Shown: positions 4,190-60,609, counted from the first letter of the stretch. The stretch is DNA of 64,000 nucleotides from Vicinamibacterales bacterium (GCA_035758845.1 DASTVZ010000224.1:151-64150), one strand, 5' to 3'. Numbers and translations are program-made. The notes: a model not told the origin generated them from the sequence alone.

Positions 4190-4267
4190 ATTGTTGATTG
4201 CTGATTTCTGATGGCTGATTGGTTTCTCGCTCTTCAATCAGCGATCAGCAATCGAAAATCAGCAATT
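4190..4267. repeat. inverted heptad array: about 4 GCTGATT-type units, a 13-nt loop, then about 4 AATCAGC-type units
   Basis: Read directly: attgttgattgctgatttctgatggctgattgg / tttctcgctcttc / aatcagcgatcagcaatcgaaaatcagcaatt. It fills the spacer between the patatin-like stop (4274) and the PLP-enzyme start (4174). Confidence 0.85.
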
Positions 4268-4273
4268 CCATTG

Positions 4274-5734
4274 TCACGCTTTCCCTCTCTTCCCCGCGGC
4301 GCCATTCCCCTGATGGACTTCCATCCGCTCGCCGCCGGCGCCAACGATCGGCTCGATGAACTGCCGATACGCGTCCTCATATCCGCGATCGACGAGTTCC
4401 GAGAGCGCCTGGGTGCGATCCGACCGCTCGTCATAAACACCGGCGAAATCCAGCGGACCGAGCGGATTGTGGACAGGCCGAATCACGAACATTCCGGCAA
4501 ACCGGCCATCGAAATGTTCCAGGGCATCGCGCAGGCTCGCCGCCTCGAACGAGGCGAGATATTCGCCGGCCCGGCCGCGAATCTCCTCGCGACCCGTGCC
4601 GAGTTGATGAGCAATGGCTTCGGGCGATGATGCACTGACGACGATCACTTGTTCTGCGCCGGCCGTCGCCACTTCACGAAGCAGCCTTGCCAGAGCCGCA
4701 GGACGATCGCAGAGTCGATGTGTCTCGCCGCGCCAGGGTCCCTCGGGCGGGAACGCCGTCAGGTGAGGCGTCGTCGCGACCGGCAACGCGAGCGCGGCGG
4801 CCAGTGCGTCGAACGCATAATCGCGCGAGATTCCCGACAGGTCGAACGCCTCCAGGTATCGCGACGCACTCTCTGGTGCTCCCGGCCGCCCGAAAAAGCG
4901 CGAACGATGGGCGTGGCCCAGGAGCGCAAAGACCACGTCGCGCCGCGCATCGATGTCGTGAACCGCGACCAGCAATTCTCTGAAACCAGGCTGTCCAAGA
5001 TTGTCGGTGAGCAGTTCGACATACCGCCGCGCGAGATCGTTCGCCTCCGGCCGCGCGAGCGGCGCCGCTCCGCGGATCAGATTCCACAGTTCGGTCAACG
5101 ACCCGGTCAAGAGAGTCGAGGATGTGAGTGGTGATCCAAGCAAGCGCCAGAGAATTGATTGCCTCGCCCGCCGGCGCAGATGGGCACCGATCGTGGACCA
5201 GCCGAGATTGATCGCCAGCGCCGCGACGCCGACCACGAGGACGAACAGCACCAGCCTGGGGATCGTGGTTGGAAGCGCCGTCGGCGCAAAAAGCGCGTCG
5301 ATCCATCCGCTGAACGTCGAGCGGAGCGTCGCCGCCGGAGCGTCGAGACCGACAAGCGTCAGGAGGAGTCCGGCGAGCCCGACGAGGACGGCGATCCCCA
5401 GCAGCGTCATCGGCACAGCAAACACCACCGCGGCGGCGGCGAGCGTCCACCCTGCGATACGAAGCGGCAGTCGCCATCGATAGAACTGCGTCGCCGCCGT
5501 TGAGCGCCACAGGCCGTTGGCTTCCCAGAGCCGAACACCGCCGTCGACGGCAGTGAAGACGGCACTGATGGCGCCGACCCCACGGCCGGCGACCAGGTCG
5601 ATTTTGACGCCAGCTTCGTGGAGGGCCCGAAGCACGCCGGCATGATACGCGCCCGCCGTGCCTGATCCGGTCAGCACGAGCGCGGTTCTCAGTCGCGTCG
5701 AATACTGCCGGTCCGGGGCCTCGGGTGTAATCAC
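4274..5734 (-). CDS. patatin-like phospholipase family protein with an internal transmembrane insertion and a degenerate nucleophile motif
   Basis: LVLTGSGTAGAYHAGVLRAL matches the oxyanion-hole region. GRGVG sits where GxSxG is expected. Two hydrophobic stretches lie around aa 95-190. GTG start at 5734. Confidence 0.7.
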   Translation of the reverse strand: MITPEAPDRQYSTRLRTALVLTGSGTAGAYHAGVLRALHEAGVKIDLVAGRGVGAISAVFTAVDGGVRLWEANGLWRSTAATQFYRWRLPLRIAGWTLAAAAVVFAVPMTLLGIAVLVGLAGLLLTLVGLDAPAATLRSTFSGWIDALFAPTALPTTIPRLVLFVLVVGVAALAINLGWSTIGAHLRRRARQSILWRLLGSPLTSSTLLTGSLTELWNLIRGAAPLARPEANDLARRYVELLTDNLGQPGFRELLVAVHDIDARRDVVFALLGHAHRSRFFGRPGAPESASRYLEAFDLSGISRDYAFDALAAALALPVATTPHLTAFPPEGPWRGETHRLCDRPAALARLLREVATAGAEQVIVVSASSPEAIAHQLGTGREEIRGRAGEYLASFEAASLRDALEHFDGRFAGMFVIRPVHNPLGPLDFAGVYDERSDRTQALSELVDRGYEDAYRQFIEPIVGAGGERMEVHQGNGAAGKRGKA

Positions 5735-5747
5735 AACCGGTGTGTGC

Positions 5748-6215: not shown

Positions 6216-6238
6216 TCCCCGGATGGTAGCAGAAAACC

Positions 6239-6271
6239 ATTGCTGAATGCTGATTGCTGAAGGCGGATTGC
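6239..6271. repeat. direct heptad array, TGCTGAW/GCGGATT units (about 4.5 copies)
   Basis: attgctgaatgctgattgctgaaggcggattgc lies between the divergent greA and trmH-like starts. Confidence 0.7.
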
Positions 6272-9582: not shown

Positions 9583-9654
9583 GGCTGGTGAGCCGCTGAC
9601 TGTTGGCTGTCGATGATGGAGTTCAGAACCCAGAAGCCAAGAGCCGGAAGTCAG
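9583..9654. repeat. inverted short-unit array, GGCTG-type units facing CAGAASC heptads
   Basis: ggctggtgagccgctgactgttggctgtc ... cagaacccagaagccaagagccggaagtcag. It ends at the DUF488 stop codon (9655). Confidence 0.55.
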
Positions 9655-12891: not shown

Positions 12892-12921
12892 GCCGTGAAC
12901 CATGCTGAATTGGTTCACGGC
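12892..12921 (-). other. perfect 10-bp stem hairpin overlapping the DUF218 stop codon
   Basis: gccgtgaacc / atgctgaatt / ggttcacggc. The loop carries the GCTGAAT unit. No U-tract follows. Confidence 0.7.
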
Positions 12922-13673: not shown

Positions 13674-14510
13674 ATGCGAACGATATTTTCTCTCACACTG
13701 GTTCTCGCCACAGCCACGTCGCTGACCTTGCCCGCACACGCTCAACAGGCGCCCGCTGCGCCGGCGGCTCAGACACCTCCCGCCGGGGCCAGCCAGACAC
13801 CGCCGCGGGGAAACCCCAAGGACACAGAAGTCTGGGAACCGGTGCCTGCGGTCGTGACGCCGGGTCAGGCCAATAGCGATCCGCCGTCGGACGCGATCAT
13901 CTTGTTCGACGGCAAGAATCTGGATCAATGGGTCTCGGTGAAAGACAAGTCGCCGGCGGGATGGAAGGTTGCCGATGGCGTGATGACGGTCGTGAAGTCC
14001 GCCGGCAATATCGAGACGAAGCGCAGCTTCAAAAGCTATCAACTGCACCTCGAATGGCGCATCCCGACCGAGATTACTGGTTCCGATCAGGCGCGCGGCA
14101 ATAGCGGACTATTTCTTGCCTCGACGGGCGCCGGCGATGGTGGATACGAGCTGCAGATTCTCGATTCGTATAACAACAAGACCTACGTCAATGGCCAGGC
14201 GGGCAGCATCTACAAGCAGGCCATCCCGCTCGCCAACGCAATGCGCAAGCCCGGCGAGTGGCAAACGTATGACGTTCTCTGGACGGCCCCCACGTTCAAT
14301 GCCGACGGAACGGTAAAGACGCCGGCCTACGTCACCGCATTTCACAACGGTGTACTGATCCAGAATCACTTCGAGTTGAAAGGCGAGACGCTGTATATCG
14401 GCAAACCGGAATATAAGAAGTACGACACGGCGCCGATCAAGCTGCAGGCCCACGGCGATCCAAGCCCGCCGATCAGCTTCCGGAATATCTGGCTCAGAGA
14501 ATTGAAATAA
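13674..14510 (+). CDS. secreted DUF1080 (3-keto-disaccharide hydrolase-like) protein
   Basis: ORF 13377..14510. Start at ATG 13674 (MRTIFSLTLVLATATSLTLPAHA). DGKNLDQWVS, NSGLFL, YELQILDSYNN and ISFRNIWLREL. Confidence 0.85.
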   Translation: MRTIFSLTLVLATATSLTLPAHAQQAPAAPAAQTPPAGASQTPPRGNPKDTEVWEPVPAVVTPGQANSDPPSDAIILFDGKNLDQWVSVKDKSPAGWKVADGVMTVVKSAGNIETKRSFKSYQLHLEWRIPTEITGSDQARGNSGLFLASTGAGDGGYELQILDSYNNKTYVNGQAGSIYKQAIPLANAMRKPGEWQTYDVLWTAPTFNADGTVKTPAYVTAFHNGVLIQNHFELKGETLYIGKPEYKKYDTAPIKLQAHGDPSPPISFRNIWLRELK

Positions 14511-14540
14511 GAAATGCTGAATGCTGAATGCTGAATGAAA
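14511..14540. repeat. tandem GCTGAAT heptads (3 perfect copies)
   Basis: gaaatgctgaatgctgaatgctgaatgaaa starts 1 nt after the DUF1080 stop. Confidence 0.85.
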
Positions 14541-14558: not shown

Positions 14559-14638
14559 GGTTCTGCAGGGTTCTGACGCGTTCTCGAGCGAACCTCGTAG
14601 AACCCGGTAGAACCTTGCAGAACCTCGCAGAACCCGGA
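14559..14638. repeat. eight exactly 10-nt-phased units: 3 x GGTTCTNNNN facing 5 x AGAACCNNNN around a CTCGAG centre
   Basis: ggttctgcag ggttctgacg cgttctcgag cgaacctcgt agaacccggt agaaccttgc agaacctcgc agaacccgga. It abuts the ferritin stop at 14639. Confidence 0.9.
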
Positions 14639-23115: not shown

Positions 23116-25803
23116 TCAGCGCGACATGTACTTCTTGAACAACTCGACTTGCGAGTTGTCGAGCGGCACGTCGCGCCCGGCGACGATCACGTGCCGTACC
23201 TGCGATCGGACTTCTAGTGGATCACCGGTGAGCACGACGAGATTGGCCACCTTGCCGGCGTCGATGCTGCCGACCTGACCGTCGACGCCGAGAATGCGCG
23301 CCGCGTCGAGCGTCAGCGCTTTGATCGCGTCATCGTGCGAGAGACCCCACGCGACGGCTCGCCCGGCCTGGAACGGAACGTCGCGCGAGAACTGGAAGCC
23401 GCCGCTCGAAAATGCAAACGTCACACCCGCCTTCGCCAGCGCCGCGGGCGTCTGATACGGGTAGGCGTGGAATTCATCTTCGCGCGGGGGCAGTGAAAGA
23501 ATGCTCGACAAGATCACCGGCACGTCGCGCTGCTTCAAGAGTGGCGCAATCTTTTGTGCGTCGGCGCCGGCCTGCAGCACGATGCGGATGTTCTGTCGAT
23601 CGGCAAGGGCGATCGCATCGCGCATCGTCTGCTCGGTGTTCGCAGCGACGTAGAGTGCCTGACGACGATCGAGCACCGGCAGAAATGGCTCGAGCGTCCA
23701 GTCGACTTGCCGAGTCGCCGGCTGTTTCGCGTAGACGCGCGCACGCTCGAGCAGCTGATTGAACGTCTTGATCGGATCGGGTCCTTGTGGCGGCGCGGCG
23801 GCGCCTCGTCCACCGCCTCCACCACCGCGGCCTCCGGTTCCGCCCGGATAGTTGAACGCCAGGCCGGCTGACGGCCGCAGCGTCGCCTCCTCCCACGTCC
23901 ATCCGTCGAGATTCATGACCGGAATCTCTCCACTGATCGTGCCGCCGCCTGGCCGCACGCCGATCGTCGTGATGCCTTCACTGCGCGTCACCGGAATGGC
24001 GATGCTGTCGGCCTTGTACGCCACGCGCGTGCGCAGCATCTGGTCGAAGGGCAGAATCTCGGTCACGTCGTCGTAGTTGCGGACACCGGGTTCGTTCAGT
24101 CCGATATCGGTACTCGCGTCGATCATCCCGGGAATCACGGTCGCGCCCTGCACATCCAGGGGTTTCGCGCCAGCTGGCACCGCCACGTTCGCGCCCACGG
24201 CTTCGATGCGATTGCCCTTGATGACAATCGATCCCTTCGGGATGACGGGACCAGAGACCGTCACGATGCGAGCGTTGGTGATCGCCCAGGTCGGGCCGTC
24301 GGCGTTGCCCTTGACGTCGAATCGTTCGGCCGCCGGCGCCGGGCGCGGTGACGCCTGTGAGCCGTTCGTCGAACCATCCGTCGTCTGCGGTCCATTGGAA
24401 GTCGACTGCGTTCCATTTGTAGATGCCGGCGATGAATCCGTCGTCGAACGTCCACTCTTCTCCCGTTGGATTTCGGTAATCCGCTGCAGGTCCTTCTCCC
24501 GGTCGTAATACGGGACGCCGTCGATGTAGCTGCGCTCGACAATGGCAGCTGTCGAGAGCGGGTGATGGTTCCAGATGACGACGTCGGCATCCTTGCCGAC
24601 CTCGATTGAGCCGACACGATTCTCGACCTTGAGTTGCTTCGCCGGATTGATCGTGACCATCGCGAACGCCTGTTCGTCGGTGACGTCTCCGTATCGCACC
24701 GCCTTGGCCGCCTCCATGTTCAGCCGCCGCGCCTGCTCCGCATCGTCCGAATTGATTGAGACGACCACCCCTTTGTGCGTCATCAACGAGGCGTTGTGAG
24801 GAATGGCGTCGGCCGCCTCCATCTTGTAGCCCCACCAGTCGGAGAACGTCGATGCGCCGGCATTGTGCGCGGCGATCTCCTTGGCCACCTTGTAGCCTTC
24901 GAGCACATGCTGAAAGGTCGTAATCTTGAAGCCCATCTCGTCGGCCAGGCGGATGAGCATCAGGATTTCGTCGGCACGGTAGCTGTGCGCGTGAACGAGG
25001 CGCTTGCTCTCGAGCACTTCAACGAGCGCGTCCAACTGCAGATCGCGGCGAGGCGCAAGGGCGTCCTGACCGCCCTTCTTTTTGGCATCGTAGTCCTGCC
25101 ACTCCTTGCGATACGCCTTCGCGCGCGTGAAGGCATCACGGATCACGTACTCCACACCCTGGCGAGTCGTGGGAAAACGCTGCGGGTTGCTCGGTGCCTG
25201 ACCGCGCTTGCGGGTCACGTTTTCGCCGAGAGCGAACTTGATGCCTGGGAGCGCTCCCTGAAAAACCAGATCGTTCGCGCGTCGCTTGCCATAGCGCAAT
25301 TTGATGACGACTGTTTTTCCACCGATCGCATTCGCGCTGCCATGCAGAATGTTGGCGGTCGTCGTGCCGCCAGCGAGATCGCGATAGATATTGATGTCGG
25401 TGGGATCGAGGACGTCCTCCATGCCGGTCATCGAGCTGACCGACACGGTCCCTTCATTGATGGCGTCGTTGGCGATGTGAGAGTGCGCATCGATAAGGCC
25501 AGGCGAGACGAACTTGCCGGTGGCGTCGTATACGTCCGCGCCGGACGGGATCGGCACGTTCGTGCCAACCGCGGCGATTTTGCCGTCGCGGATGAGGACG
25601 GTGCCGTTGTTGATCGTGCCGCGCGTGGCGGTGAGGATCGTTCCGTTACGAATGGCGACGACTGCCGGCGTCGCGCCCTGAGCCAACACCGGTGATGTCG
25701 CTTTCGTCGGCCCCTCCAGCACCAGAACAGCGACTGCACCGAGTGCGAGACAAGCGCATAACCAACGGCCAATCACGTAGACCTCCGACGAAAGAACGCC
25801 CAC
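23116..25803 (-). CDS. secreted two-module amidohydrolase family protein
   Basis: PGLIDAHSHIA metal motif. A second ITNARIVTVSG ... PGMIDAS module. Confidence 0.85.
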   Translation of the reverse strand: MGVLSSEVYVIGRWLCACLALGAVAVLVLEGPTKATSPVLAQGATPAVVAIRNGTILTATRGTINNGTVLIRDGKIAAVGTNVPIPSGADVYDATGKFVSPGLIDAHSHIANDAINEGTVSVSSMTGMEDVLDPTDINIYRDLAGGTTTANILHGSANAIGGKTVVIKLRYGKRRANDLVFQGALPGIKFALGENVTRKRGQAPSNPQRFPTTRQGVEYVIRDAFTRAKAYRKEWQDYDAKKKGGQDALAPRRDLQLDALVEVLESKRLVHAHSYRADEILMLIRLADEMGFKITTFQHVLEGYKVAKEIAAHNAGASTFSDWWGYKMEAADAIPHNASLMTHKGVVVSINSDDAEQARRLNMEAAKAVRYGDVTDEQAFAMVTINPAKQLKVENRVGSIEVGKDADVVIWNHHPLSTAAIVERSYIDGVPYYDREKDLQRITEIQREKSGRSTTDSSPASTNGTQSTSNGPQTTDGSTNGSQASPRPAPAAERFDVKGNADGPTWAITNARIVTVSGPVIPKGSIVIKGNRIEAVGANVAVPAGAKPLDVQGATVIPGMIDASTDIGLNEPGVRNYDDVTEILPFDQMLRTRVAYKADSIAIPVTRSEGITTIGVRPGGGTISGEIPVMNLDGWTWEEATLRPSAGLAFNYPGGTGGRGGGGGGRGAAAPPQGPDPIKTFNQLLERARVYAKQPATRQVDWTLEPFLPVLDRRQALYVAANTEQTMRDAIALADRQNIRIVLQAGADAQKIAPLLKQRDVPVILSSILSLPPREDEFHAYPYQTPAALAKAGVTFAFSSGGFQFSRDVPFQAGRAVAWGLSHDDAIKALTLDAARILGVDGQVGSIDAGKVANLVVLTGDPLEVRSQVRHVIVAGRDVPLDNSQVELFKKYMSR

Positions 25804-35976: not shown

Positions 35977-35978
35977 CT

Positions 35979-36183
35979 CGATTGCCGATTGTTGATTGGT
36001 GAATGCCGATTTGTCGATTGCTGATTGTCAATTGGTCATTGACGATCGCTGACTGGCGATTGGTGATTGGCGATTGGTGATTGCCGACGGGTGTTCGAGT
36101 ATGACCAGGAGGTAAACACAATCGTCACTCCACAATCGTCAATCCAAACTCCGCAATCTACAATCCGCAATCCGCAATCGTCA
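35979..36183. repeat. large inverted heptad array: about 16 GATTGNN units, a 28-nt loop, then about 9.5 CAATCNN units
   Basis: Left arm 35979-36088, loop 36089-36116, right arm 36117-36183. It occupies the whole corA-mutL spacer and touches both the corA stop and the mutL ATG. Confidence 0.9.
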
Positions 36184-39982: not shown

Positions 39983-42184
39983 CTACTCCGTTTGCGGAAT
40001 GATTTCCGAGATGTCCGCGAGATCGAGAATGAGGTCGCGCAGATCCGCCATGAGCGTCAGGCGCGCGTCTCTCGTCCGCACGTCGTCTGCCATCACGAAC
40101 ACCTCGGTAAAGAACCTGTCGACGGCCGCGCGAAGGCCGGCGATTTCAATGAATGCGGCGCGATAGTCGCTGCGCGCGGCGGCAGTTTCGATTCGCGGGC
40201 GACGCGCGTCCAGCTCCTCGAGCAGGGCACGTTCTGCCGCCTCGGTAATGGCCCTGCGATCGAGCGCACCGGACGATCGACGTTCGCGAGCGATATTCTT
40301 GACCCGCTTGAACAACACGGCCAGCGCCTGAAAATCCTCCGAGCCGCGCATGCCCTGGATCGCTTCGGCGATCCGCCTGGCGCGGAGCGGACTGACATCT
40401 CCAGCCGATGTTGCGGCACGCACGACCTCAATCCCGAACCCACGTTGTTCCAACGCAAACCGTACTCGCTCGGCCGCGAACGCGAGGGCGGCCTCGGACA
40501 GTTCCGGCGTCCATGGACCGGTCGTGCCGATCGTTCCTTCCGCGGCGCGCGCGAGAATCGGTCCAAGCCAGACTTCCCTGTCGATCCCGGTTAGCTGCGG
40601 AAGATCCATCAGGATCCTGACGGCCCCCTGCATCTGCCGCCGCAAGCCAAATGGATCGCGAGACCCGGTGGCACGTTCGCCCGCCTTCGCCAGCGAGACG
40701 AACGTGTCGATCTTGTCGGCAAGCGAAACAGCCGCCCACGTCGTCGCGGCCGACCCCAACTGCTCGCGTGACGGCGGCGCATCCGCTTCGACTCCCACGG
40801 GAAGGTACTGGTAATAGATAGCCTTCCACACCTGCTCGGGCTGCCCCTGCTGGCGCGCGTAGATCCCACCGATCGTACCCTGAAGTTCGGTGAACTCGAA
40901 AACCAACTCCGTCGTGAGGTCGGTTTTGGCGAGCCTCGCCGCCTCGGCGGCATGCTGGGCGTCTTGCGGGTTGCCCAGGACATCACGCGCGATCCATTGC
41001 GCAAGCGACGAAATTCGCTCGGCCTTGTCTCGATAGCTGCCGAGCTTCTTGTGAAACAGCAGCGTGTGCAGGCGATCCAGTCGCGACGCGAGCGGCGTCT
41101 TTTGATCGGATTCCCAGAAGAATTTCGCGTCCCTGAGCCGCCCGGTGACGACGCGCTCGGCATTTTTGGCGATCAGACGCTCATCAGATGGCTGCGTATT
41201 GACGACTGCAAGGAACGCTTCCTTCAACTCTCCAGTCGCCGTGACGACCGGGAAGAAGTGCTGATGGTGCACGAGCGTCGTCGTCAATACCTCGTGCGGA
41301 AGGGAAAGAAAGCCGCGGTCGTAAAAGCCGGCAACGACGCCCGGATATTCGACCAGGTCTGCCACCTCGTCGATGAGCGTGCTGTGCTCCTTCAGATGGA
41401 CCCGTCCACTCAGCCGCCGCGCGTGTGATTCGAGTTCGCGCGCAATGCGATCGCGGCGATCCTCATGCCTGAGCACGACGAAATGCTCGGACAGCCGCGC
41501 CTGGTACTCCTCGAAGCTTCGAACCTTGATCGATCGGCCGGCGCGGCCACTCGTGGCAAGAAACCTGTGGCCGTAGGTGAGCGCACCCGATTCAATGTCC
41601 AACACCTGCGGTCCGGCCGCATTCGCGGCACGGCTGATCGTGAAAGGGACCACGCGTCCGCCGTAAAGGAACAGCAGCCATCGAATCGGTCTTCCAAACA
41701 GCAGCTCACCGCGTCCATCGTCCAGCTTCGCGTCCCAGTGCATCTGCTTCGGGAACGCGAGATCGCGCAGCACCGCGCCGAAAATCTCCGGCAGCGCGTC
41801 GACGGCGCTCTTCCCGCGCTGACGCTTGTGATACGCGAGGTATTCGCCTTTCGGCGTCGACAGCCGCGAGAGTTCCTCGAACGCGACACCTTGTTTGCGG
41901 GCAAAGCCGAGCGCGGCGGGCGTGGGTTTGCCGTCGGCATCGACCGCGGCCGAGACCGGTGGGCCGCTCAATGTTTCTTCGAGATCCTCCTGGCGCTCCG
42001 CGATCTTCGCGATGCGTGCCGTCAGCCGTCGAGGCGTGCAATAGCTTTCGACCGCTGCCATCGGAGCAATACGGAATTCGGTGAGCCGATCCTTCAACCG
42101 ATCCGCGAGCTGCCGCGTCAACCCGGGCATCCACGCTGCCGGCAGTTCCTCGACGCCAATTTCGATCAGCAGTTCTCGATCCAT
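39983..42184 (-). CDS. glyS: glycine--tRNA ligase beta subunit
   Basis: [17 protein letters not shown]-terminus and overall GlyS pattern. Confidence 0.95.
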
Positions 42185-42264
42185 TCCAAATCAACAATCC
42201 ACAATCACAATCGCCCAATCGACATTCAAAAAAATCAGCAATCAGCAATCCGCAATCAACAATT

Positions 42265-42267
<3 letters not shown>
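42185..42267. repeat. single-orientation heptad array, AATCNNC units (about 11 copies) with a central A7 run
   Basis: tccaaatcaacaatccacaatcacaatcgcccaatcgacattcaaaaaaatcagcaatcagcaatccgcaatcaacaatttca fills the glyQ-glyS spacer. Confidence 0.85.
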
Positions 42268-43139
<872 letters not shown>

Positions 43140-43143
<4 letters not shown>

Positions 43144-45338: not shown

Positions 45339-45376
45339 AAAAAAACAGCCACGATGATGCACGCACCATCGTGGCT
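45339..45376 (-). terminator. canonical rho-independent terminator
   Basis: The minus strand reads agccacgatg-gtgcgtgcat-catcgtggct followed by GTTTTTTTG. That is a 10-bp perfect stem and a T7 tract, downstream of the 45404..46312 gene. Confidence 0.8.
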
Positions 45377-45400
45377 ACTGGCTGCCAGCTTCTGGCTGCT
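45377..45400. repeat. short CTGGCTG heptad run (about 3-4 units)
   Basis: actggctgccagcttctggctgctgg lies between the stop at 45404 and the canonical terminator. Confidence 0.5.
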
Positions 45401-45403
45401 GGT

Positions 45404-50978: not shown

Positions 50979-52247
50979 CTAGACTTCCGGTTGCGGTTGC
51001 GGCGCTAGTCGCATGCGCACCTTGTGGATGCGGCGCCGCTCGGCTTCAAGCACTTCGATCTGCAGACCGTCGCTTTCGAACGTCTCCCCGACCGCCGGTA
51101 CGCGACCGGCTCGGGTCAGCACGTACCCGCCGACTGTCTCGAACCCTTCCGGTTCGATTTCGATGCCGAGTCGATCCCGCACTTCGGCGATATTGACTTT
51201 CGCGCTGAACACGTACGATCCGCTTGCTTCCTCGATGACCGGCTCGGTCTCGACGTCGTATTCGTCGCGAATCTCGCCAACGATCTCCTCCAGCAGATCC
51301 TCGATGGTCACCAGCCCGGCGGTGCCGCCGTATTCGTCGACGACAATGGCGATCTGAACCTGCTGACGCTGGAACTCTTTCAGCATTTCGGCGACGCGCT
51401 TCGTCTCGGGAACGAACGTTGCCGGCCGGATGAATCGCGTGAGATGCAGAAGCGACGTCTGTCCCGACTCCGGTGGATCGAGCCGGAGCAAGTCTTTGAT
51501 GAAGACGAACCCGACGATGTTGTCAAGATTCTCGGTGTAGATGGGGATACGCGAGTACTCCTGCTCGCGAAAGAGCGCGCGGAGCTCGTCGAAGGTGGCC
51601 TCCGCCTGAATCGCCACCATGTCCGGGCGCGGGGTCATGACCTCGCGCACCAGTGTGTCGCCGAAATCCACGATCGATTGCAGCAGACGACGTTCGTCCA
51701 CTTCGATGATGCCCTGTCTCTCAGCCGTCTCGTTCGGCGGCGCCTCTCCTGGCTGATTCTCGACCGGTTCGCCGTCGCCGTTGCTCGGCTCGGCGCGTTC
51801 ACGCTCACGCCGCGGGACCGCGGCTATGAGCCGCACGAGGCCACCGGTCAACGGGTGAAGAAACCTGGCGACGACGTCGAACGGCGGCAACAGCACTTCA
51901 AGCACTCGCTCGGGGTTTCGCCGCACGATTAACAGCGGCAGAACGTGCTCGAACACGAGAATGAAGATCGCAACGAACACGAGCAGCATCCCAATCGACT
52001 GGAACCCCGTGCGTCCCGTCAGGATCGCGATGAACATCGTCGCCAGCGAGAAGATCAGGCCGAGCAGAAGTCGCGCAGGAATGAAGAGCTGCGTGGGATC
52101 CTCGAGATAGAAGCCGAGACGGTCGTCCCGTCCTCCGCGTTCGGCCATCAGCCGCAGTGAGAGGCGCATCAACGCGGTGAACGCTGTTTCAATCGTGCCG
52201 ACGTACACCGCGGCAATCGCGAGCAGAAAGAGCAGCAGCGGAATCAT
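50979..52247 (-). CDS. hemolysin-family / CorC-like protein (DUF21-CBS-CorC_HlyC)
   Basis: N-terminal TM domain, a CBS pair and a C-terminal CorC/HlyC domain. Conserved position next to ybeY. Confidence 0.9.
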   Translation of the reverse strand: MIPLLLFLLAIAAVYVGTIETAFTALMRLSLRLMAERGGRDDRLGFYLEDPTQLFIPARLLLGLIFSLATMFIAILTGRTGFQSIGMLLVFVAIFILVFEHVLPLLIVRRNPERVLEVLLPPFDVVARFLHPLTGGLVRLIAAVPRRERERAEPSNGDGEPVENQPGEAPPNETAERQGIIEVDERRLLQSIVDFGDTLVREVMTPRPDMVAIQAEATFDELRALFREQEYSRIPIYTENLDNIVGFVFIKDLLRLDPPESGQTSLLHLTRFIRPATFVPETKRVAEMLKEFQRQQVQIAIVVDEYGGTAGLVTIEDLLEEIVGEIRDEYDVETEPVIEEASGSYVFSAKVNIAEVRDRLGIEIEPEGFETVGGYVLTRAGRVPAVGETFESDGLQIEVLEAERRRIHKVRMRLAPQPQPEV

Positions 52248-52771
52248 GATCGCTCGATCAATCCCGCACGAAGGCCGCCGCGGCGGCGGAGTCGTGTTTC
52301 GACGCGGCGCATGCGCCCGGCGTCCTCCTGATTGTGGTGATCGTACCCGAGCAGGTGCAGCAAGCCATGAAGCGCAAGCACGCGCAACTCGGCCTGGTAC
52401 GAGTGGCCGGCGTCCCTCGCCTGCTTCCTGGCAGTGCCGGTGGCAATGACGATATCGCCAAGGAAACCTGTCGGGATCCGTTGTCCGGGATCCGGGATCC
52501 GGGATCCGGGATCAACCGGAAACGATAAGACGTCGGTCGGCCGATTTTTCCGGCGGTACTGTGAATTGAGTGTCTGGCTGTGGGCATCGGTGACGAGCGC
52601 GATCGCTACCTCGCCGCGTGCGACAGATGGCGCGATCGAGGCGAGCCACTGCGAGAGCCCGCCGTCGCGGACCGATCGTCCGCGACCGTCAGTCACGCTG
52701 ACATGCAAGCGTCGACCGCGCCGGTTCTCGGCGCCACCCGGCTGGCGCCGGACTTTACTGTCGGGATCCAC
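52244..52771 (-). CDS. ybeY: rRNA maturation endoribonuclease YbeY
   Basis: [11 protein letters not shown] zinc motif and DVLSFP. GTG 52771 is the first start after the phoH region and overlaps phoH by 17 nt. Confidence 0.85.
52471..52512. repeat. CCGGGAT heptads inside the ybeY CDS: 4 perfect tandem copies (52485-52512) plus 2 degenerate units
   Basis: tcgggatccgttgtccgggatccgggatccgggatccgggat. Contains four GGATCC cores. 42 nt equals 14 codons. Confidence 0.9.
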
Positions 52772-53708
52772 CGTAGGCTTCGTACGCCTTGACGATCTGC
52801 TGCACGAGCGGGTGCCGCACCACGTCCTTTTCATCGAAATGAATGAACGCGATGCCCTCGACGTTGCCAACCACCTTCATGGCCTCGACGAGGCCCGACT
52901 GGCGTGCCGTCGGCAGATCGATCTGCGTGACGTCTCCAGTGATGACGGCTTTTGACCCGAACCCGAGGCGCGTCAGAAACATCTTCATCTGTTCCGAGGT
53001 GGTATTCTGCGCTTCGTCCAGAATCACGAACGCATCGTTCAGCGTGCGCCCGCGCATGAACGCGATCGGCGCCACTTCGATCGTTCCACGCTCCAGCAGC
53101 CGATCCGCGCGCTCGATTTCCATCATGTCGTACAACGCATCGTAGAGCGGACGCAGGTACGGATTCACTTTCTCCTGCAAATCGCCTGGCAGGAAGCCGA
53201 GCTTCTCGCCCGCTTCAACCGCCGGACGCGCCAGGATGATCCGGCTCACGCGCTTCGACAAGAGAAAGGAGACGGCCTGCGCCATCGCCAGGTATGTCTT
53301 CCCGGTGCCGGCCGGCCCGATGCCGAATACGATGTCCCGCTGCTCGATGGCCTCGAGGTAGCGTCGCTGATTGACGCTCTTGGCCATGACCTGCCGTTTA
53401 CCGGTCGCGCGGGGCGCACCGCGGAGGAAGTAGTCCGCAAGCTCGACGCGTTCGTCCTGCTCGACGAGCTGCGCGGCCGTCTTCACGTCGCCCTTGGCGA
53501 GCCGGTACCCCCCTCGGATCAACGACGACAGCTGTTCCAGCAGGTTTTCCGTTCGCGCGACGTCGGACGCCTCACCCTCGACGATCACTTCGTGGCCGTT
53601 CGTACGAATCTTCACATTGAACAGCGACTCAAGATGTTTGAGGTTCTCGTCGTAGGGGCCGTACAGGGACTCGGCCCCGTCATCAGGGACCGAAATTTTG
53701 CGCATCAC
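52755..53708 (-). CDS. phoH: PhoH family ATPase
   Basis: [13 protein letters not shown] Walker A and ILDEAQNTT. Confidence 0.95.
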
Positions 53709-53783: not shown

Positions 53784-53815
53784 TTGGCTCGCGGCTCTGC
53801 CCAGCAGCCAGCAGC
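53784..53815. repeat. GGCTNNN / CCAGCAG heptad inverted pair
   Basis: ttggctcgcggctctgcccagcagccagcagc ends 4 nt before the aspS stop codon. Confidence 0.5.
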
Positions 53816-53819: not shown

Positions 53820-55589
53820 TCACTTTAGCCTCAGTTCTTTCAACTGCTTGTCACTGACGGGCGAAGGCGCTCCGGCCATCAGATCCACTGCCTGAGCGGT
53901 TTTTGGAAACGCGATCACATCGCGGATTGATGGCTCGCCACACAGGATCGCCACAATCCGGTCGAGGCCGAGCGCAATTCCGCCGTGCGGCGGCGTGCCG
54001 TACTCGAGCGCATCAAGAAAGAATCCAAAGCGAAGCTTCGCTTCCTCTTCCGAGATCCCGAGCAGTCTGAAAATGAGACGCTGCAGCGTCCGATCGTGGA
54101 TTCTGATACTGCCCCCGCCGATCTCGCTGCCGTTCAGCACGAGGTCATAGGCGCGTGCGCGCGCGCGTCCCTGATCCGTGTCGAGCAGCTGCCGGTCGCT
54201 CTCGAGCGGCGCCGTGAACGGATGGTGCATGAACTCGTAGCGCTTCTCGTCTTCGAGCCACTCGAACATCGGAAAGTCGACCACCCACAGGAATGCGAAT
54301 GCGTCCGGGTCGAGCAGACCTTCCTTCTTTGCCATCTGCAGTCGAAGCTGCCCAAGCATCCTCGACGTGGCTTCGTGTGGACCCGCCGCGATCAGCAGCA
54401 GATCGCCAGCGGCGGCGCCAGCAAGATCCAGCGCCTGGCGAATCGCATCTTCACCGGCGGCTTTCAACGCAGAGCTTTGCACTCCTGCGTCCGCACGCCG
54501 CGCCCACACGAGGCCGCTGGCACCGAGCTGCTTCGCCTGGTCGACCACCTCATCGAGCTCGCGACGGGAATATTTCCCCGCGGCCGGCATCGCAAAGCCA
54601 CGAACCTCGCCTCCGCTCGACATCGCACTGCGAGCAATGGCGAACTCGGAGGTCGCGAATGCGGCCGACAGATTCTTGATTTCCATCGCGCATCGAAGGT
54701 CCGGCTTATCCGACCCGTACTTCGCAATTGCCTCGGCATACGGCAAACGCAAGAAAGGTCGCGGCGCTCCTTTTCCAATCAGCGCCATCAGGTGCTCCAT
54801 CAACGGTTCGAGCGTGGCGAAGACGAGTTCTTCGGTCGCGAACGAGATCTCGAGATCGACTTGGGTGAACTCCGGCTGCCGATCGGCGCGGAGGTCCTCG
54901 TCGCGGAAACACTTGACGATCTGAAAATACCGATCGAGCCCGGAAATCATCAGGATTTGCTTGAAGATCTGCGGCGATTGCGGCAGGGCGTAGAACTCAC
55001 CGGGATGCACGCGGCTCGGCACCAGGTAGTCGCGCGCCCCCTCGGGCGTCGACTTGGTGAGCATTGGCGTCTCGATCTCGAGAAAGCCGAGTTCATCGAA
55101 ATATTTTCGGATCGCCATCGTCGCGCGGTGGCGCATGATCAGGTTGCGCTGCATCCGCGGCCGCCGCAGATCGATGTACCGGGATTTCAGCCGTGCCTCT
55201 TCCGTGATCTCGACGTCGTCGCTCACCATGAACGGCGGCGTTTTCGCTTCGTTGAGCAAGCGGATTTCGCTGGCTGCGACCTCGATCTGACCGGTCGCAA
55301 TCTTGGTGTTCACCGTCTCCGGGGCACGATCCTCGACCGTCCCCGTCACGGCGATCACAGACTCCGCGCGCAGGCGCTTCGCATCAGCCACCAGCGTGTC
55401 GTTGTCGCGGACGATCACCTGCGTGACCCCGTAGCGATCCCGGATGTCGATGAACACGAGCGATCCCAGGTCTCTGACGCGGTGGACCCAGCCAAGCAGG
55501 ACGACATCTGTGCCGACATCCTCGACGCGAAGGGCACCGCACGTGTGTGTTCTCGCCAACTTCCCTAACGGTTCAATTTGCATGGCCAA
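53820..55589 (-). CDS. aspS: aspartate--tRNA ligase
   Basis: GWVHRVRDLGSLVFIDIRD OB fold, FRDEDLRADRQPEFTQ motif 2 and GGIALGLDR motif 3. Confidence 0.95.
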   Translation of the reverse strand: MAMQIEPLGKLARTHTCGALRVEDVGTDVVLLGWVHRVRDLGSLVFIDIRDRYGVTQVIVRDNDTLVADAKRLRAESVIAVTGTVEDRAPETVNTKIATGQIEVAASEIRLLNEAKTPPFMVSDDVEITEEARLKSRYIDLRRPRMQRNLIMRHRATMAIRKYFDELGFLEIETPMLTKSTPEGARDYLVPSRVHPGEFYALPQSPQIFKQILMISGLDRYFQIVKCFRDEDLRADRQPEFTQVDLEISFATEELVFATLEPLMEHLMALIGKGAPRPFLRLPYAEAIAKYGSDKPDLRCAMEIKNLSAAFATSEFAIARSAMSSGGEVRGFAMPAAGKYSRRELDEVVDQAKQLGASGLVWARRADAGVQSSALKAAGEDAIRQALDLAGAAAGDLLLIAAGPHEATSRMLGQLRLQMAKKEGLLDPDAFAFLWVVDFPMFEWLEDEKRYEFMHHPFTAPLESDRQLLDTDQGRARARAYDLVLNGSEIGGGSIRIHDRTLQRLIFRLLGISEEEAKLRFGFFLDALEYGTPPHGGIALGLDRIVAILCGEPSIRDVIAFPKTAQAVDLMAGAPSPVSDKQLKELRLK

Positions 55590-55763
55590 GACAGTCTCTA
55601 CCTTAGAAGCGCTCTCGCATCGTGGTCAACATCAACCGCTTCACTGTCAAACTGCATTCATGTCTTAAGAGAACGACAGGAGAAAGGAGAAAAGAAAAAA
55701 GACTCTTGTGATCCGATCGCAGTGTGACCGTGGAGTGCGCTGATTGAACCGTCACGCTCAACA

Positions 55764-57595: not shown

Positions 57596-57610
57596 CTAAC
57601 AATGATACTT

Positions 57611-57660
57611 CGCGATTCGCGCGTTAGCGATTCGCGCGTTAGCGATTCGCGCGAATCGCG
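57611..57660. repeat. 15-nt unit cgattcgcgcgttag x2 running into an 18-bp perfect palindrome gcgattcgcgcgaatcgc
   Basis: Units at 57613-57627 and 57628-57642. Palindrome at 57642-57659. Confidence 0.85.
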
Positions 57661-57709
57661 TATCGGGATCCGGTGTGCGGGATCCGTAGTCCGGATCCCG
57701 GATCCCGAC
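57661..57709. repeat. GGATCC-core heptad array in inverted arrangement (cgggatccg ... cggatcccg)
   Basis: tatcgggatccggtgtgcgggatccgtagtccggatcccggatcccgac. Four GGATCC cores in 40 nt. Same family as the ybeY insert. Confidence 0.8.
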
Positions 57710-57736: not shown

Positions 57737-59386
57737 TCACTTCTTCACAGTCGGATACGCAATCCCCAACTGCTCGAGGTATGTCTTGTACTTCGCGGGA
57801 TCGTAGTAGAACTTTTTCATCTGCTCGCGATACTTATCCATCGTCGGCTTGTTCAGTTCGATGGCTGGACGGTCGTCCGGGCGGATAAGCGGTTCGTATT
57901 TCGTATCCTTCGTCTGCACGTTGCGGAAGTAGTCCCAGGCAGCCTGCACGACGGCTGGTTTCATCAGCAGGTCGATCATCGTCATCGCCTGCACTTTCGC
58001 ACCAGCAGTCACACCCTTGTGCGCGATCGGTGTCGCCATCGCGATGGCGTTCGCCCAGTTGTGCCCGGGCAGCCCTGGGATGTTGGCCGGATATCGCAGC
58101 GTAATCGTCGGGACATTCCACGAGACATCGCCGATGTCATCCGACCCTCCGCCGGTGTTTGTGGTTGCAGGGCCCTGAAGCGCAGCCGCGAGCTTGATCG
58201 TCAAGCCCGTTTCTCGCGATCCGAGTTCTTTCTGGAGCGCCTTCGCCAGCGTCTGATCGTCTTCAGTCCACTGCGGCAGTCCGACGCGCGTAATGTTCGC
58301 GAATGCCGCTTCCGCCACGGCCTTGTTGAAGTGCTGGGGCCAGGCCGACCCGAGCACGCGCGTGGGTAGAAGCTCGGTGCCGGTCATCAGCGCGGCGCCC
58401 TTGGCGATCGAATCGCCAATGGCCCACATCTCCTTGATCTTCTGATACGTCGTCTGCCGGAAGTAGTACCACACCGATGCCGTTCGCGGGACGACGTTGG
58501 GTTGATCGCCGCCGTCGGTGATCACGTAATGCGAACGCTGCTCGAGCGGCAAATGCTCGCGGCGGAAGTTCCAGCCGATGTCCATCAGCTCTACGGCATC
58601 CAACGCGCTGCGGCCGCGCCAGGGCGCTCCGGCGGCGTGCGCGGTCTCTCCGCGGAATGTGTAGAGCACTGAGACGAGACCTGTGCCCGATCCTCTATCT
58701 CCCCACGAGACGCCCATCTCGTCACCGACGTGGGTGAAGAGCGCGACGTCGACGTCCTTGAACAGCCCGGCGCGTACGAAGTACGCCTTGGTGCCGACGA
58801 GCTCCTCAGCGGTGCCGGACCAGATGCGCAGCGTTCCGGGAAGCTTTTCGCGCTCCATGATCTTCTTCACGGCCAGGGCCGCAGTGACGTTCAGTGGCTC
58901 GCCGGAGTTGTGTCCTTCACCGTGGCCAGGCGCACCTTCGATGATCGGATCGTGGTACGCGACGCCTGGCTTCTGCGACGCCTGCGGAATCCCGTCGATA
59001 TCAGAACCCAGAGCCAGAACCGGCTTGCCGGATCCCCAGGTCGCCATGAATGCCGTGGGAATGCCGGCCACGCCTTCCTCGACCGTGAAACCGTTCTTCT
59101 TGAGAATGTCGATCAGATAGCGGTTCGTCTCGAACTCCTGGAAGCCGAGTTCGCCAAAGCTGAAGACGGAATCGACCATCTGCTGCGTGAACACTTTCAT
59201 CGAGTCGATGTCCGCCACCGCTTCGCTCTTGAGCTTGGCGACGCGGGGTTCGTCAGCTGGCGGCGCCGGTGGACCCTGTGGCGCTGGCGACTGCGGCTGA
59301 TCGCCACGTCCCTGCGCCAGAACGGACGCGCCGGCGAGAGCGAAGATGACCGCAATCAATCTCACATATCTAGTCGTACCGCTCAC
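57737..59386 (-). CDS. secreted M20-family amidohydrolase (AbgB-like)
   Basis: GSDIDGIPQ ... GHGEGHNSG metal ligands. Start set to GTG 59386, preceded by AAGGAG at 5-nt spacing, giving MSGTTRYVRLIAVIFALAGASVLA. Confidence 0.8.
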   Translation of the reverse strand: MSGTTRYVRLIAVIFALAGASVLAQGRGDQPQSPAPQGPPAPPADEPRVAKLKSEAVADIDSMKVFTQQMVDSVFSFGELGFQEFETNRYLIDILKKNGFTVEEGVAGIPTAFMATWGSGKPVLALGSDIDGIPQASQKPGVAYHDPIIEGAPGHGEGHNSGEPLNVTAALAVKKIMEREKLPGTLRIWSGTAEELVGTKAYFVRAGLFKDVDVALFTHVGDEMGVSWGDRGSGTGLVSVLYTFRGETAHAAGAPWRGRSALDAVELMDIGWNFRREHLPLEQRSHYVITDGGDQPNVVPRTASVWYYFRQTTYQKIKEMWAIGDSIAKGAALMTGTELLPTRVLGSAWPQHFNKAVAEAAFANITRVGLPQWTEDDQTLAKALQKELGSRETGLTIKLAAALQGPATTNTGGGSDDIGDVSWNVPTITLRYPANIPGLPGHNWANAIAMATPIAHKGVTAGAKVQAMTMIDLLMKPAVVQAAWDYFRNVQTKDTKYEPLIRPDDRPAIELNKPTMDKYREQMKKFYYDPAKYKTYLEQLGIAYPTVKK

Positions 59387-59450
59387 GGTGACTCCTTTGG
59401 CTGCCGATGTGGCTGGAAGGATAGCAAACGATGTCATACTTAGGCGATCC

Positions 59451-60473
59451 ATGCCGCTTCTCGATCGTTTTAGCCGTCCGTTGCGGAGCCTCCGCATTTC
59501 GGTGACCGATCGCTGTAACCTGCGATGTCAGTACTGCATGCCGGAGCCGGACTATCTCTGGCTGCCCCGCGAAAGCCTGCTGACATTCGAAGAAACTGCC
59601 GCGATCGTTGACGCGTTCACGCCGCTTGGCGTCGATCGGGTGCGGATCACTGGCGGCGAACCGCTTCTCCGCCGCGATCTGCCGGTGCTTATCGAGTCAT
59701 TGGCGGCGAAGCCGGCAATCGCTGATCTTGCGATGACCACCAACGGGGTTCTGCTCGCGGCGAATGCATCGCGACTGCGCACCGCCGGACTGCACCGAGT
59801 GACCGTCAGTCTTGACACGCTCGACCGCGAGCGCTTCCGCGCGCTGACGCGGATGGATGATTTGCACGAGGTGCTCGACGGCATCGCTGCTGCCGCGGCC
59901 GCGGGATTTACGTCGCTCAAGCTCGACACCGTGGTGATCCGCGGCGTCAATGACGATGAACTGGTGGCGCTCGTCGAATATGCGAAGAGTGTGAATTCCG
60001 AACTCCGATTCATCGAGTACATGGATGTTGGCGGGGCAACGCGCTGGACACCTTCTGCGGTTGTGTCGAGGCGCGAGATCCTCGATCGATTGCGCGCACA
60101 CTACGGGGGTGTCATGCCGATTGCGGAACAGTCGTCAGCCCCCGCGGATCGATTCCTGCTGCCTGACGGGACGACGTTCGGAATCATTTCGTCGACGACC
60201 GAGCCGTTCTGTGCATCGTGCGATCGTAGCCGCCTCACCGCGGACGGTGTCTGGCTTCTTTGCCTCTATGCAGCCACCGGCACGGACCTTCGTCGCCCGC
60301 TACGCGCAGGGGCTAGCCGCGAGGATCTTCAGCGGTTGATCGAAGCTGTATGGTCGGTTCGTGCCGACCGCGGTGCCGAAGAGCGTCTCGGGATGGATCG
60401 CGAAACGACGCTTATCCCCGTCCGGACGCTTAAGAAAGACGCTCACCTCGAAATGCATACCCGCGGCGGCTGA
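59451..60473 (+). CDS. moaA: GTP 3',8-cyclase MoaA (radical SAM)
   Basis: Start ATG 59451 (MPLLDRFSRP). CNLRCQYC radical-SAM cluster and C-terminal CASCDRSRLTADG. Confidence 0.9.
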   Translation: MPLLDRFSRPLRSLRISVTDRCNLRCQYCMPEPDYLWLPRESLLTFEETAAIVDAFTPLGVDRVRITGGEPLLRRDLPVLIESLAAKPAIADLAMTTNGVLLAANASRLRTAGLHRVTVSLDTLDRERFRALTRMDDLHEVLDGIAAAAAAGFTSLKLDTVVIRGVNDDELVALVEYAKSVNSELRFIEYMDVGGATRWTPSAVVSRREILDRLRAHYGGVMPIAEQSSAPADRFLLPDGTTFGIISSTTEPFCASCDRSRLTADGVWLLCLYAATGTDLRRPLRAGASREDLQRLIEAVWSVRADRGAEERLGMDRETTLIPVRTLKKDAHLEMHTRGG

Positions 60474-60609
60474 TTGCGGATTGCGGAGTGGCGATTGCCG
60501 ATTTCTTGATTGGCGATTGCGGATTGAGATTGCCCATCTCAATCGACAATCTCAATCGACAATCGACAATCTGAAAATCCGCAATCTACAGTCCGAAATC
60601 GGCAATCAG
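60471..60609. repeat. inverted heptad array: about 8.5 GATTGCN units, a 5-nt loop, then about 10.5 CAATCNN units
   Basis: The array starts with the moaA TGA (tgattgcggattgcgg...). Its centre is a perfect 9-bp stem, gattgagat-tgccc-atctcaatc (60522-60544). It ends 2 nt before the sigma ORF. Confidence 0.9.

Follow-up and report, generated by a model that had tools for sequence, protein, structure and literature searches.

Heptanucleotide tandem-repeat arrays at gene junctions and in protein loops of Vicinamibacterales

Among the long simple-sequence repeats (LSSR) of bacteria, heptamer microsatellites are the most frequent. As summarized in two later papers (PMC4679880; PMC4692102), LSSR have units of 5–11 nt, among which heptanucleotides are the commonest, and slippage was proposed as their origin (Mrazek, 2007); the richest genomes named in these summaries are those of Burkholderia, two Cyanobacteria, three Actinobacteria and Xanthomonas, and Acidobacteriota are not mentioned there. 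We found no literature on such repeats in Vicinamibacterales or Acidobacteria. Here, we analyze the short-period tandem arrays of a 64-kb chromosome segment from a Vicinamibacterales bacterium (GCA_035758845.1, DASTVZ010000224.1:151-64150; this whole stretch is called the window below), which has ~62% G+C and a set of housekeeping genes encoded for the most part on the minus strand, and we compare them with those of related loci. The observation of arrays, which are fast-evolving, is real and statistically solid. The arrays belong to a known kind, that of the heptanucleotide LSSR of Mrazek (2007) and the Xanthomonas-type heptamers, of which the short tandemly repeated repetitive (STRR) sequences of cyanobacteria and the TAACTGA repeats are further members; with the LSSR, as far as the summaries describe them, they share tandem units of 5–11 nt in runs longer than chance and the dominance of period 7. 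A preliminary description of the same DNA overstated their novelty and their extent. We favor, with moderate confidence, the reading that they are heptanucleotide microsatellites generated by slippage and not a new regulatory element; they would undergo concerted evolution, be transcribed through by RNA polymerase and lack any sequence-specific function.

In Xanthomonas, (GGGANTN)n repeats form 186 and 183 arrays in two genomes, 89–93% of them intergenic, at a mean distance of 28 nt from the upstream open reading frame (ORF) and 160 nt from the next one (Rehm et al., 2015; PMC4692102). They lie mostly between co-directional genes, with 7–8% between divergent genes, and 70–75 cases per genome are close convergent inverted pairs capable of forming stem-loops. 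The two species carry arrays of different length at the same junctions, and the function of these arrays was left open (PMC4692102). The arrays described here resemble these repeats, and the Nostoc GGGGA(C/T)T repeats, in having 7-nt units with conserved and variable positions in 2 to ~26 copies; in being intergenic, nearer to the end of the upstream ORF, between co-directional genes and rarely between divergent ones, with inverted pairs; and in keeping their junctions while length and sequence vary between related species, with no functional bias among the neighboring genes (PMC4692102). The inverted-arm architecture, which had been taken for undescribed, was therefore already in print, as convergent inverted pairs of Xanthomonas heptamer arrays. 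There are also clear differences. The Xanthomonas units are G-rich, form G-quadruplexes and are dominated by one family, whereas several families coexist here and are mostly incapable of forming such structures; in addition, the host is acidobacterial and the arrays also build in-frame coding loops. Every Xanthomonas-type feature that we tested was found (7-nt excess, intergenic location, variable units, stop proximity, inverted pairs and variation at junctions), with the exception of G-quadruplex potential. The Xanthomonas and Nostoc repeats have a G-tract in each unit and prefer four units; here, a GGG run is lacking in GATTGNN, AATGCTG and GAACCYNGYA and confined to the GGGATCC arrays at 52472 and 57661.

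The STRR heptamers CCCCAGT, TTGGTCA and CAACAGT are not present among the array units found here, and the host belongs to Vicinamibacterales, not to the heterocystous cyanobacteria. TAACTGA repeats are known from Beggiatoaceae, Cyanobacteria and Bacteroidetes, and the BOGUAY genome has 169 direct sets of them vs. 1 indirect set (MacGregor, 2015; PMC4679880). Like these repeats and the STRR of Calothrix and Nostoc, the arrays in this study are 7-nt repeats at many intergenic loci that often reach a start codon devoid of a ribosome-binding site, and the same is true at mutL (PMC4679880). STRR and TAACTGA repeats consist of one or few fixed, mostly perfect and direct units, whereas the present ones are imperfect, fall into several families and are often inverted. 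A preprint on Nostoc heptamers (recF/recO) could not pin down their role. The likeness to STRR by unit length, and by position to repetitive extragenic palindromes (REP) and bacterial interspersed mosaic elements (BIME), had been pointed out before and is apt: REP/BIME sequences are also found past stop codons, inside operons and between convergent genes, as inverted pairs with hairpin potential. A REP unit is a 20–40-nt imperfect palindrome with a species-wide consensus, tied to a REP-associated tyrosine transposase (RAYT; PMC3184786). The unit here, in contrast, is 7–10 nt long and non-palindromic, and its copies have no fixed length, common termini or loop.

Relatives were collected with a MutL scan of one genome per species, which returned only Vicinamibacterales/Acidobacteriota metagenome-assembled genomes at ≤93% identity, and with a MutL scan of metagenomes, which returned soil contigs, again at ≤93% identity. 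The resulting comparison set comprises 160 related loci (L001–L160, ~2 Mb) from short-read and long-read assemblies. For the census, the window and L001–L080 were used (1.46 Mb), where a codon-usage gene caller leaves ~8% as non-coding; these gene calls are crude and some starts are misplaced, and distances to start codons are therefore approximate. Arrays were detected with Tandem Repeats Finder (TRF) at score 30, and 30 dinucleotide-preserving shuffles served as the null.

In the window, period 7 yields 16 TRF rows against a shuffle mean of 2.4 (maximum 7), an excess of ~7-fold, and the multiples of this period follow, with 5 rows vs. 0.6 in shuffles for period 14 and 3 rows vs. 0.03 for period 21. 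The period-7 calls are at 4190–4266, 6239–6271, 14513–14537, 35979–36189, 42185–42263, 45372–45402, 52472–52513, 57609–57707 and 60472–60607, and those of period 10 at 14590–14634 and 34768–34823. TRF thus reproduces most of the loci at which short-period arrays had been reported. The triple-unit pattern GATTGNNGATTGNNGATTG (three GATTGNN units, ≤2 mismatches) has 38 matches where 0.22 are expected, and all of them fall at the five loci (4190, 6239, 35979, 42185 and 60471) that had been assigned to one GATTGCN/CAATCNN family. Likewise, the pattern GAACC-N5-GAACC-N5-GAACC has 7 matches vs. 0.01 expected, at 14559–14634 and 34772–34816, in agreement with the decamer proposed at 14559 and 34771. 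As had been proposed, the unit combines a conserved core with variable positions: positions 1–5 of GATTGNN carry 1.2–2.0 bits and positions 6–7 carry 0.3 bits, a core conservation that is partly imposed by the picking of units. Homologous arrays are found in independent short-read and long-read assemblies, and separate samples of a species agree exactly in them (L087/L088, L021/L105); the arrays are therefore not an assembly artefact.

The extent of the phenomenon within the window is smaller than first thought. Clear arrays are found in ~7 of the ~25 spacers longer than 70 bp (~30%), not in about half of them. At 12902, where two genes overlap, a simple hairpin carries GCTGAAT once in its loop, and the loci at 9583, 30117 and 53784 contain no substantial TRF array at score 30 (lag-7 identity 0.40–0.54); 53784 has only a 2.1-copy CCAGCAG row (53801–53815). 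The CTGGCTG array claimed at 45377 is borderline (four TGGCTGC units at 45372–45402, TRF score 34, 70% matches) and sits between a stop codon at 45404 and a terminator at 45379–45344. Abutment to a stop codon had been listed at nine positions, and we read it from the sequence at 4274, 14510, 14639, 36181, 42265 and 60473. Finally, the statement that no gene explains the arrays holds for the spacers and not for 52472, which is in frame in ybeY, or for 34771, which encodes part of the MutL linker.

The largest array consists of a GATTGNN arm (35979–36090) and an NNCAATC arm (36117–36189) that together occupy the entire spacer between the corA stop codon (36181; gene at 36181–37146) and the mutL ATG (35976; gene at 34186–35976), with a fold of −72.1 kcal/mol (z −4.25). 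The same family, in the same order, is found next to moaA (59346–60473, plus strand), where arms at 60472–60534 and 60540–60607 make up an element (60471–60609) that folds with −74.3 kcal/mol as RNA (z −8.7) and −47.9 kcal/mol as DNA (z −9.3); its stem begins in the moaA TGA (60471–60473) and ends ~3 nt before the GTG (60612) of an ORF for a sigma factor of the extracytoplasmic function (ECF) type. A shorter hairpin array of 79 nt (4189–4267; arms at 4189–4221 and 4235–4267; −32.3 kcal/mol, z −3.9) fills the spacer from the stop codon of a patatin-like gene (4274, minus strand) to the start of a gene for a Cys/Met pyridoxal phosphate (PLP) enzyme (4174, minus strand). The family has two further members. 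The spacer between glyQ (42265–43143) and glyS (39983–42184) is filled by a single NNCAATC arm, GATTGNN on the sense strand (42185–42264; TRF and pattern matches), and a short array of the GATTGCTG family, 3–4 units of TGCTGAA/ATTGCTG, sits in a divergent spacer (6238–6271; TRF scores 35–52, lag-7 identity 0.60).

Other unit families occupy the other loci. A perfect single arm of 3.6 AATGCTG units (14513–14537; TRF 100% matches) starts 2 nt past a stop codon (14508–14510), and its unit recurs in L008, L012, L021 and L096. It is followed by an inverted decamer element (14559–14634) of three GGTTCTNNNN units and 4.5 GAACCYNGYA units, between the convergent genes of a 3-keto-disaccharide hydrolase-domain protein and a ferritin-like protein, with a fold of −55.7 kcal/mol (z −5.3) and a sister element in L087 (10087–10209). 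The composite array at 57609–57707 (−70.7 kcal/mol, z −4.1), between the stop codon of an amidohydrolase gene (57737) and the start of a hexapeptide-transferase gene (57595), contains 2.8 copies of GCGATTCGCGCGTTA with the palindrome CGATTCGCGCGAATCG, followed by inverted GGGATCC/GGATCCC heptamers, and forms two hairpins. The first of these (57612–57660), a perfect 15-nt repeat of GCGATTCGCGCGTTA that ends in CGATTCGCGCGAATCG, is a strong hairpin of its own adjoining the GGGATCC heptamers.

Inverted arms are thus present at 5 of the ~10 window loci (4189–4267, 14559–14634, 35979–36189, 57661–57707 and 60471–60609), with z values of −3.9 to −8.7 for the sense-strand RNA folds. The rule that a run of units is followed by a run of their reverse complement stands at these five and fails at 42185, where the single arm has no significant structure (z −1.0). 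In the corA–mutL hairpin, the stem extends from 1 nt past the UGA to 2 nt before the AUG. When the order of units was shuffled within arms, the fold energy remained essentially the same (z −1.5, −0.6 and −0.2). Stability is therefore due to the shared 5-nt cores, the variable dinucleotides being complementary by chance only. The predicted structure is a zipper, in which 5-bp helices alternate with 2 × 2 internal loops and many pairing registers are available. We rejected an origin from a perfect palindrome that later decays, since the arms share cores and show no unit-by-unit complementarity in the order-shuffling test. Across 38 inverted loci, selected with stricter criteria among the 160 loci, the spans of the two arms are correlated (Spearman 0.60), which suggests that arms co-expand.

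Arrays of this kind extend across the order and depend little on the unit. In the census, 118 of the 163 period-7 TRF rows lie mostly within the ~8% of non-coding DNA; intergenic rows are 8 of 46 for period 10, and rows of periods 9, 12 and 15 are mostly coding. The 103 period-7 arrays of L001–L080 carry 68 canonical units. Clusters of period 7, 14 or 21 have a density per kb of spacer of 0.85 between tandem genes, 1.53 between convergent genes and 0.25 between divergent ones. In tandem spacers they begin a median of 6 nt from the stop codon (interquartile range 1–28) and leave 17 nt to the next start, so that arrays make up essentially all of the spacer. About 23 of the 95 non-coding clusters of L001–L080 (those not called intragenic) have inverted arms. 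With respect to the direction of transcription, single arms favor neither strand (21 G-rich vs. 22 C-rich), and an orientation bias at the RNA level was rejected on these counts. A degenerate core shared by the units (GANTC or GATC, for instance) and a T-loop-like motif were likewise rejected, as the commonest cores (GAACC, CAATC, GGGAT, GCTGA, GATCC and GCACC) have no shared motif.

Decamers are not a class of their own. The exact 10-nt phasing had been singled out as such, and a helical phasing was considered; period 10 is at shuffle level in the window (3 TRF rows vs. 4.1), and the GAACC/GGTTC core is found at periods 7, 8, 9 and 10. GAACCYNGYA is one unit family, whose main home in the clade is the mutL linker.

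Two observations concern the composition of the units in the 118 intergenic period-7 arrays. CTG/CAG occurs in 52% of heptamer units vs. 24% expected by composition (2.2-fold), and TGA/TCA in 32% vs. 17%. Several arrays start within the stop codon itself (TGATTG, TGACTG), a hint that the surroundings of a stop codon can give rise to an array.

The comparison of orthologous junctions, made in ~110–120 lineages for corA–mutL and in ~56 for glyQ–glyS, reveals one of the two most interesting by-products of this work: at fixed operon junctions, one unit takes the place of another. Where stop and start are well defined, the corA–mutL spacer is ≤20 nt in 44 of 107 lineages, and the two codons often overlap (ATCTGATG). 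Instead of the 204-nt GATTGNN/NNCAATC hairpin of the window, L087–L089 and L091 have inverted arms of the same family over 84–87 nt, and L085 has a single CAATC arm of 130 nt; shorter homologous arrays are found altogether in L085 and L087–L091, and L083 and L086 have matches to the CAATC-arm pattern immediately upstream of mutL. The nearest relatives (L001, L081 and L094, 93%) have a small unrelated hairpin, and L002 and L003 a spacer of 11 nt. Elsewhere the same junction bears ~20 copies of GCACGTN (L006, L007), arms of CAGTCGG and CGACTGN (L008, L012), AATGCTG/CAGCATT (L096), GGTTCCN/GGAACCN over 276 nt (L109), GATTTGGT/AAATCACC (L111), GGAAATNT/ATTTCCA (L139), CAGAATA/TATTCTG (L155) or eight copies of CAACTAC (L123). 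In a MutL tree, the GATTG-bearing lineages are scattered all over the window's clade. The GATTG array at corA–mutL is thus probably ancestral in this clade, and would have been lost or replaced several times.

The glyQ–glyS junction tells a similar story. The single GATTGNN arm is 80 nt in the window and 100 nt in L002; the spacer is reduced to 8 nt in L001 and to 8–35 nt in many other lineages, and it is built of TGGTGAA/TTCACCA arms in L003, CACGATG/CATCGTG arms in L010, CACGAAG/CTTCGTG arms in L014 and 14 GCGAACN units in L068. Among five compared pairs with at least 99.3% nucleotide identity, arrays are identical in four (L001/L094, L087/L088, L021/L105 and L028/L115) and the fifth (L100/L119) differs by one 19-nt indel. 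In the L012/L017 pair (~95% identity), 188 nt of the corA–mutL array and, elsewhere, a 28-nt block of four units differ. Arrays are therefore not hypermutable contingency loci and turn over at the time scale of species divergence, a tempo that fits interrupted microsatellites, as expected.

The second of these by-products is that repeats of non-triplet period build protein loops. In ybeY (52244–52870, minus strand; Pfam YbeY 4.6e-33), six CGGGATC units (52472–52513, minus strand; TRF score 63) add up to 42 nt, or 14 codons, in frame; they encode 14 aa in a surface loop that follows the conserved DVLSFP and precedes a conserved 10-aa segment, and that is 8 aa shorter in Aquifex YbeY (1oz9; PDB alignment). 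Relatives are hypervariable in this loop: it has 4 aa in one relative from Vicinamibacterales (P0036), and in others it consists of AQRIPDP repeated six times (P0005), three times (P0007) or once or twice (P0012). This variation corresponds to copy-number change of a 21-nt block, that is, three heptamers. In the disordered linker of MutL (~aa 360–410), arrays of 7, 8 or 10 nt are present in many of the 160 loci (136 TRF rows), with copy numbers that differ between species and sometimes with inverted runs. The window has GAACCYNGYA decamers there (34768–34823, minus strand; ~aa 385–403, NPAEPGRTTQNPVEPG; TRF and pattern matches), as do other members of its clade, with 2.4–13 copies (including L001–L004, L006, L081–L083, L085–L090, L092 and L137); other lineages have 7-nt GGATCNN, GATCAGG or CAATCNN, or 8-nt GCACCCTC. 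Partial units seem to restore the frame, e.g., gaaccgaaccgaaccc in L002. The decamer of the linker is the same unit as that of the intergenic inverted elements at 14559–14634 and at 10087–10209 of L087. That the same repeats occur in coding and non-coding DNA, and in coding DNA only where the protein is disordered and the frame is preserved, points to a mutational process at the DNA level that is filtered by selection. Such low-complexity loops seem to be repeats at the protein level, yet they are DNA-level repeats of non-triplet period.

Taken together, the periodicity, abundance, context, turnover, in-frame coding copies, strand neutrality and fold potential of the arrays describe long simple-sequence repeats with a unit of a 5-nt core and a spacer of 2 nt, occasionally 3–5 nt. 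Their origin would lie at the DNA level, probably in slippage during replication or in unequal exchange, by one to three units at a time. In Escherichia coli, larger loops escape MutS-dependent mismatch repair, and loops of ≥5 or ≥7 nt would likewise escape it here. The arrays would then evolve in concert, and selection would filter their placement only, tolerating them in non-coding DNA just past stop codons and in intercistronic and convergent spacers, and excluding them from the divergent spacers that bear promoters. In coding DNA they would survive only in disordered loops and linkers, at lengths that preserve the frame. Paired arms may be the product of strand switching templated by the hairpin, or of weak selection in favor of compact folding, and RNA polymerase would read through the arrays. 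Slippage-generated selfish repeats were one of the four roles considered in the preliminary description, and they are the one that the evidence favors.

Several findings weigh against this reading. GATTGNN is present at five window loci and at several non-orthologous loci in L002, L003 and L087, for which local slippage alone is inadequate, and the decamer is present at three sites (mutL, 14559 and 10087 of L087). A core is shared in 31% of same-locus array pairs vs. 10% between loci. The 5-nt core stays conserved next to two drifting positions, and the same is seen in single arms, which have no pairing partner. The GATTG/CAATC array at corA–mutL seems to persist across a clade in which MutL is only ~85% identical, and such persistence would need concerted evolution or selection. 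No slippage event was seen directly at the compared loci, and the gene calls of the census are crude. Because families span several loci, single arms conserve their cores and a core persists across the clade, three alternatives, namely REP-like hairpins, copying and protein platforms, stay alive.

The alternative that survives best, which we nonetheless consider unlikely, is that the arrays function as REP/BIME-like RNA hairpins, which would protect 3′ ends from 3′–5′ exonucleases, guide processing, or tune termination-reinitiation through the proximity of stop and start. It accounts well for folds that are far more stable than those of shuffles, for stems that start 0–6 nt from a stop codon and end a few nt before the next start, for enrichment past stop codons and in convergent spacers with depletion in divergent ones, and for correlated arm lengths and long persistence at the same junction, in a window where canonical terminators are scarce. 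It does not account for the roughly two-thirds to three-quarters of intergenic arrays that have a single arm and no fold, nor for variable positions that show no covariation between arms. The same arrays are found in coding loops, where a role as RNA hairpins is unlikely, and close relatives do with spacers of 2–15 nt. End-to-end closure is barely above that of shuffles (32 of 58 long spacers vs. 23.9), and a closing helix that would join stop to start was rejected on these numbers as too weak and speculative.

It is doubtful, although conceivable, that the arrays are not passive debris of slippage but actively propagated zipper repeats, whose clade-specific families (GATTGNN, GAACCYNGYA and GGGATCC) would be copied by a dedicated or repair-linked templated insertion, colonize spacers and the disordered loops of YbeY and MutL, and be retained as hairpins that tolerate shifts of register and affect how neighboring operon genes are expressed. 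Dispersal by copying, through a small non-autonomous mobile or templated-insertion element whose families spread from existing copies and then expand, appears slightly more doubtful still. Unit families common to non-orthologous loci of one genome and clade, and units unrelated to the local short spacer, are what such copying would produce. A comparison of L087 (tgacattTTC, then the array, then aaTTCtcatcatg) with L002 (tgacatTTCctcatg) would fit an insertion with a 3-nt direct repeat, but a precise deletion could equally have used that 3-nt flank as its substrate. The copies differ in length and have neither termini nor a loop in common, no transposase was noticed in the 64-kb window (no transposase scan was made), and the MutL tree favors ancestral presence followed by losses at corA–mutL. 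Some cores, in addition, could stem from stop-codon context, such as TGACTG in L009 and L010.

It is improbable that the arrays serve as platforms for a DNA-binding or single-strand-binding protein of the Csp, S1 or CsrA type, each subunit of which would cover ~7 nt, and that they act in this way on translation of the downstream gene. A core that is conserved next to a variable spacer, even in single arms, would suit such a protein, as would arrays that end at a median of 17 nt before the next start and a mutL gene without a Shine-Dalgarno sequence, and there are precedent proposals for the TAACTGA repeats of Beggiatoaceae (PMC4679880) and in the Nostoc recF/recO preprint. A platform of this type is difficult to reconcile with dozens of unrelated cores in the order, several of them per genome, with the lack of strand preference, or with copies inside ORFs. 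Intrinsic terminators without a U-tract, or transcriptional insulators, which had been listed among the possible roles, are very improbable: strong hairpins directly past stop codons, enrichment in convergent spacers and U-tract terminator-like sites at shuffle level in the window speak for them, but many arrays have a single arm, all lack the U-tract that in an intrinsic terminator follows a GC-rich stem at the end of a transcription unit, and they split glyQ from glyS (two subunits of one essential enzyme) and corA from mutL in a lineage that keeps a conserved normal terminator at 45344–45379.

Regarding these junctions, glyQ–glyS and corA–mutL are inferred to be co-transcribed, as the genes are 2–15 nt apart or have overlapping stop and start codons in many relatives. 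The overlap of the corA stop and the mutL start implies translational coupling, which the corA–mutL arrays must either break or bridge. We observed no Shine-Dalgarno sequence in front of mutL in any lineage examined (35960–35980 in the window).

The terminator just mentioned is on the minus strand (45379–45344), and has a 16-bp stem, AGCCACGATGG...CCATCGTGGCT, followed by T7. A single canonical stem-plus-U-tract terminator had been reported at 45339–45376, and one strong terminator was indeed found there; other terminator-like sites with a U-tract in the window are at shuffle level. It is conserved at the orthologous site in L004 and L007, from which it appears that this lineage uses canonical U-tract terminators. 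No Rfam match at gathering score was obtained in the whole window and no tRNA or tmRNA gene was found in it; known RNA families, tRNAs and a CRISPR-like layout, considered as explanations of the arrays, matched nothing there.

Vicinamibacterales, i.e., the subdivision-6 Acidobacteriota of soil metagenomes, offer an unusually rich natural experiment on heptamer microsatellites: unit families number in the dozens, arrays at the same operon junctions have been replaced repeatedly, single arms coexist with inverted ones, and the same repeats grow in frame within YbeY and MutL. The arrays also matter for annotation, because they create spurious ORFs and wrong start calls and inflate intergenic distances inside operons. 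The gene for the Cys/Met PLP enzyme illustrates the former: its longest ORF (3014–4237, minus strand) starts at a TTG (4237) inside the array, and the Pfam match starts from the ATG at 4174. Repeats free of stop codons extend ORFs, and will thereby mislead automatic start calling.

A second, separate kind of intergenic repeat exists in the order, represented by REP-like palindromes and by a small hairpin upstream of mutL. The GC-rich palindrome GTCCGGCTTTAGCCGGAC was seen in three unrelated loci (L049, L132 and L009, the last with a TTCA-loop variant), and GGGGTCT(GA/TC)AGACCCC occurs three times in one spacer, apparently that between glyQ and glyS in L005. The hairpin, CTTCCGCC-NNNN-GGCGGAAG, is found in L001, L004, L081, L082 and L094.

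Pfam matches identify the genes that flank the arrays at 4189 and 60471, and further genes in the window are pyruvate phosphate dikinase (37143–39974), phoH (52755–53708) and aspS (53820–55589). In the 174-nt spacer upstream of aspS there is a purine-rich AGGAGAAAGGAGAAAAGAAAAAAG (55678–55705; 2.1 copies of AGGAGAA), which could be a degenerate array or else serve ribosome binding. An ORF of 895 aa (23116–25803, minus strand) has amidohydrolase-family matches in both halves (~50–130 and 340–450; 507–566 and 790–872), as if two amidohydrolase domains had been fused in tandem.

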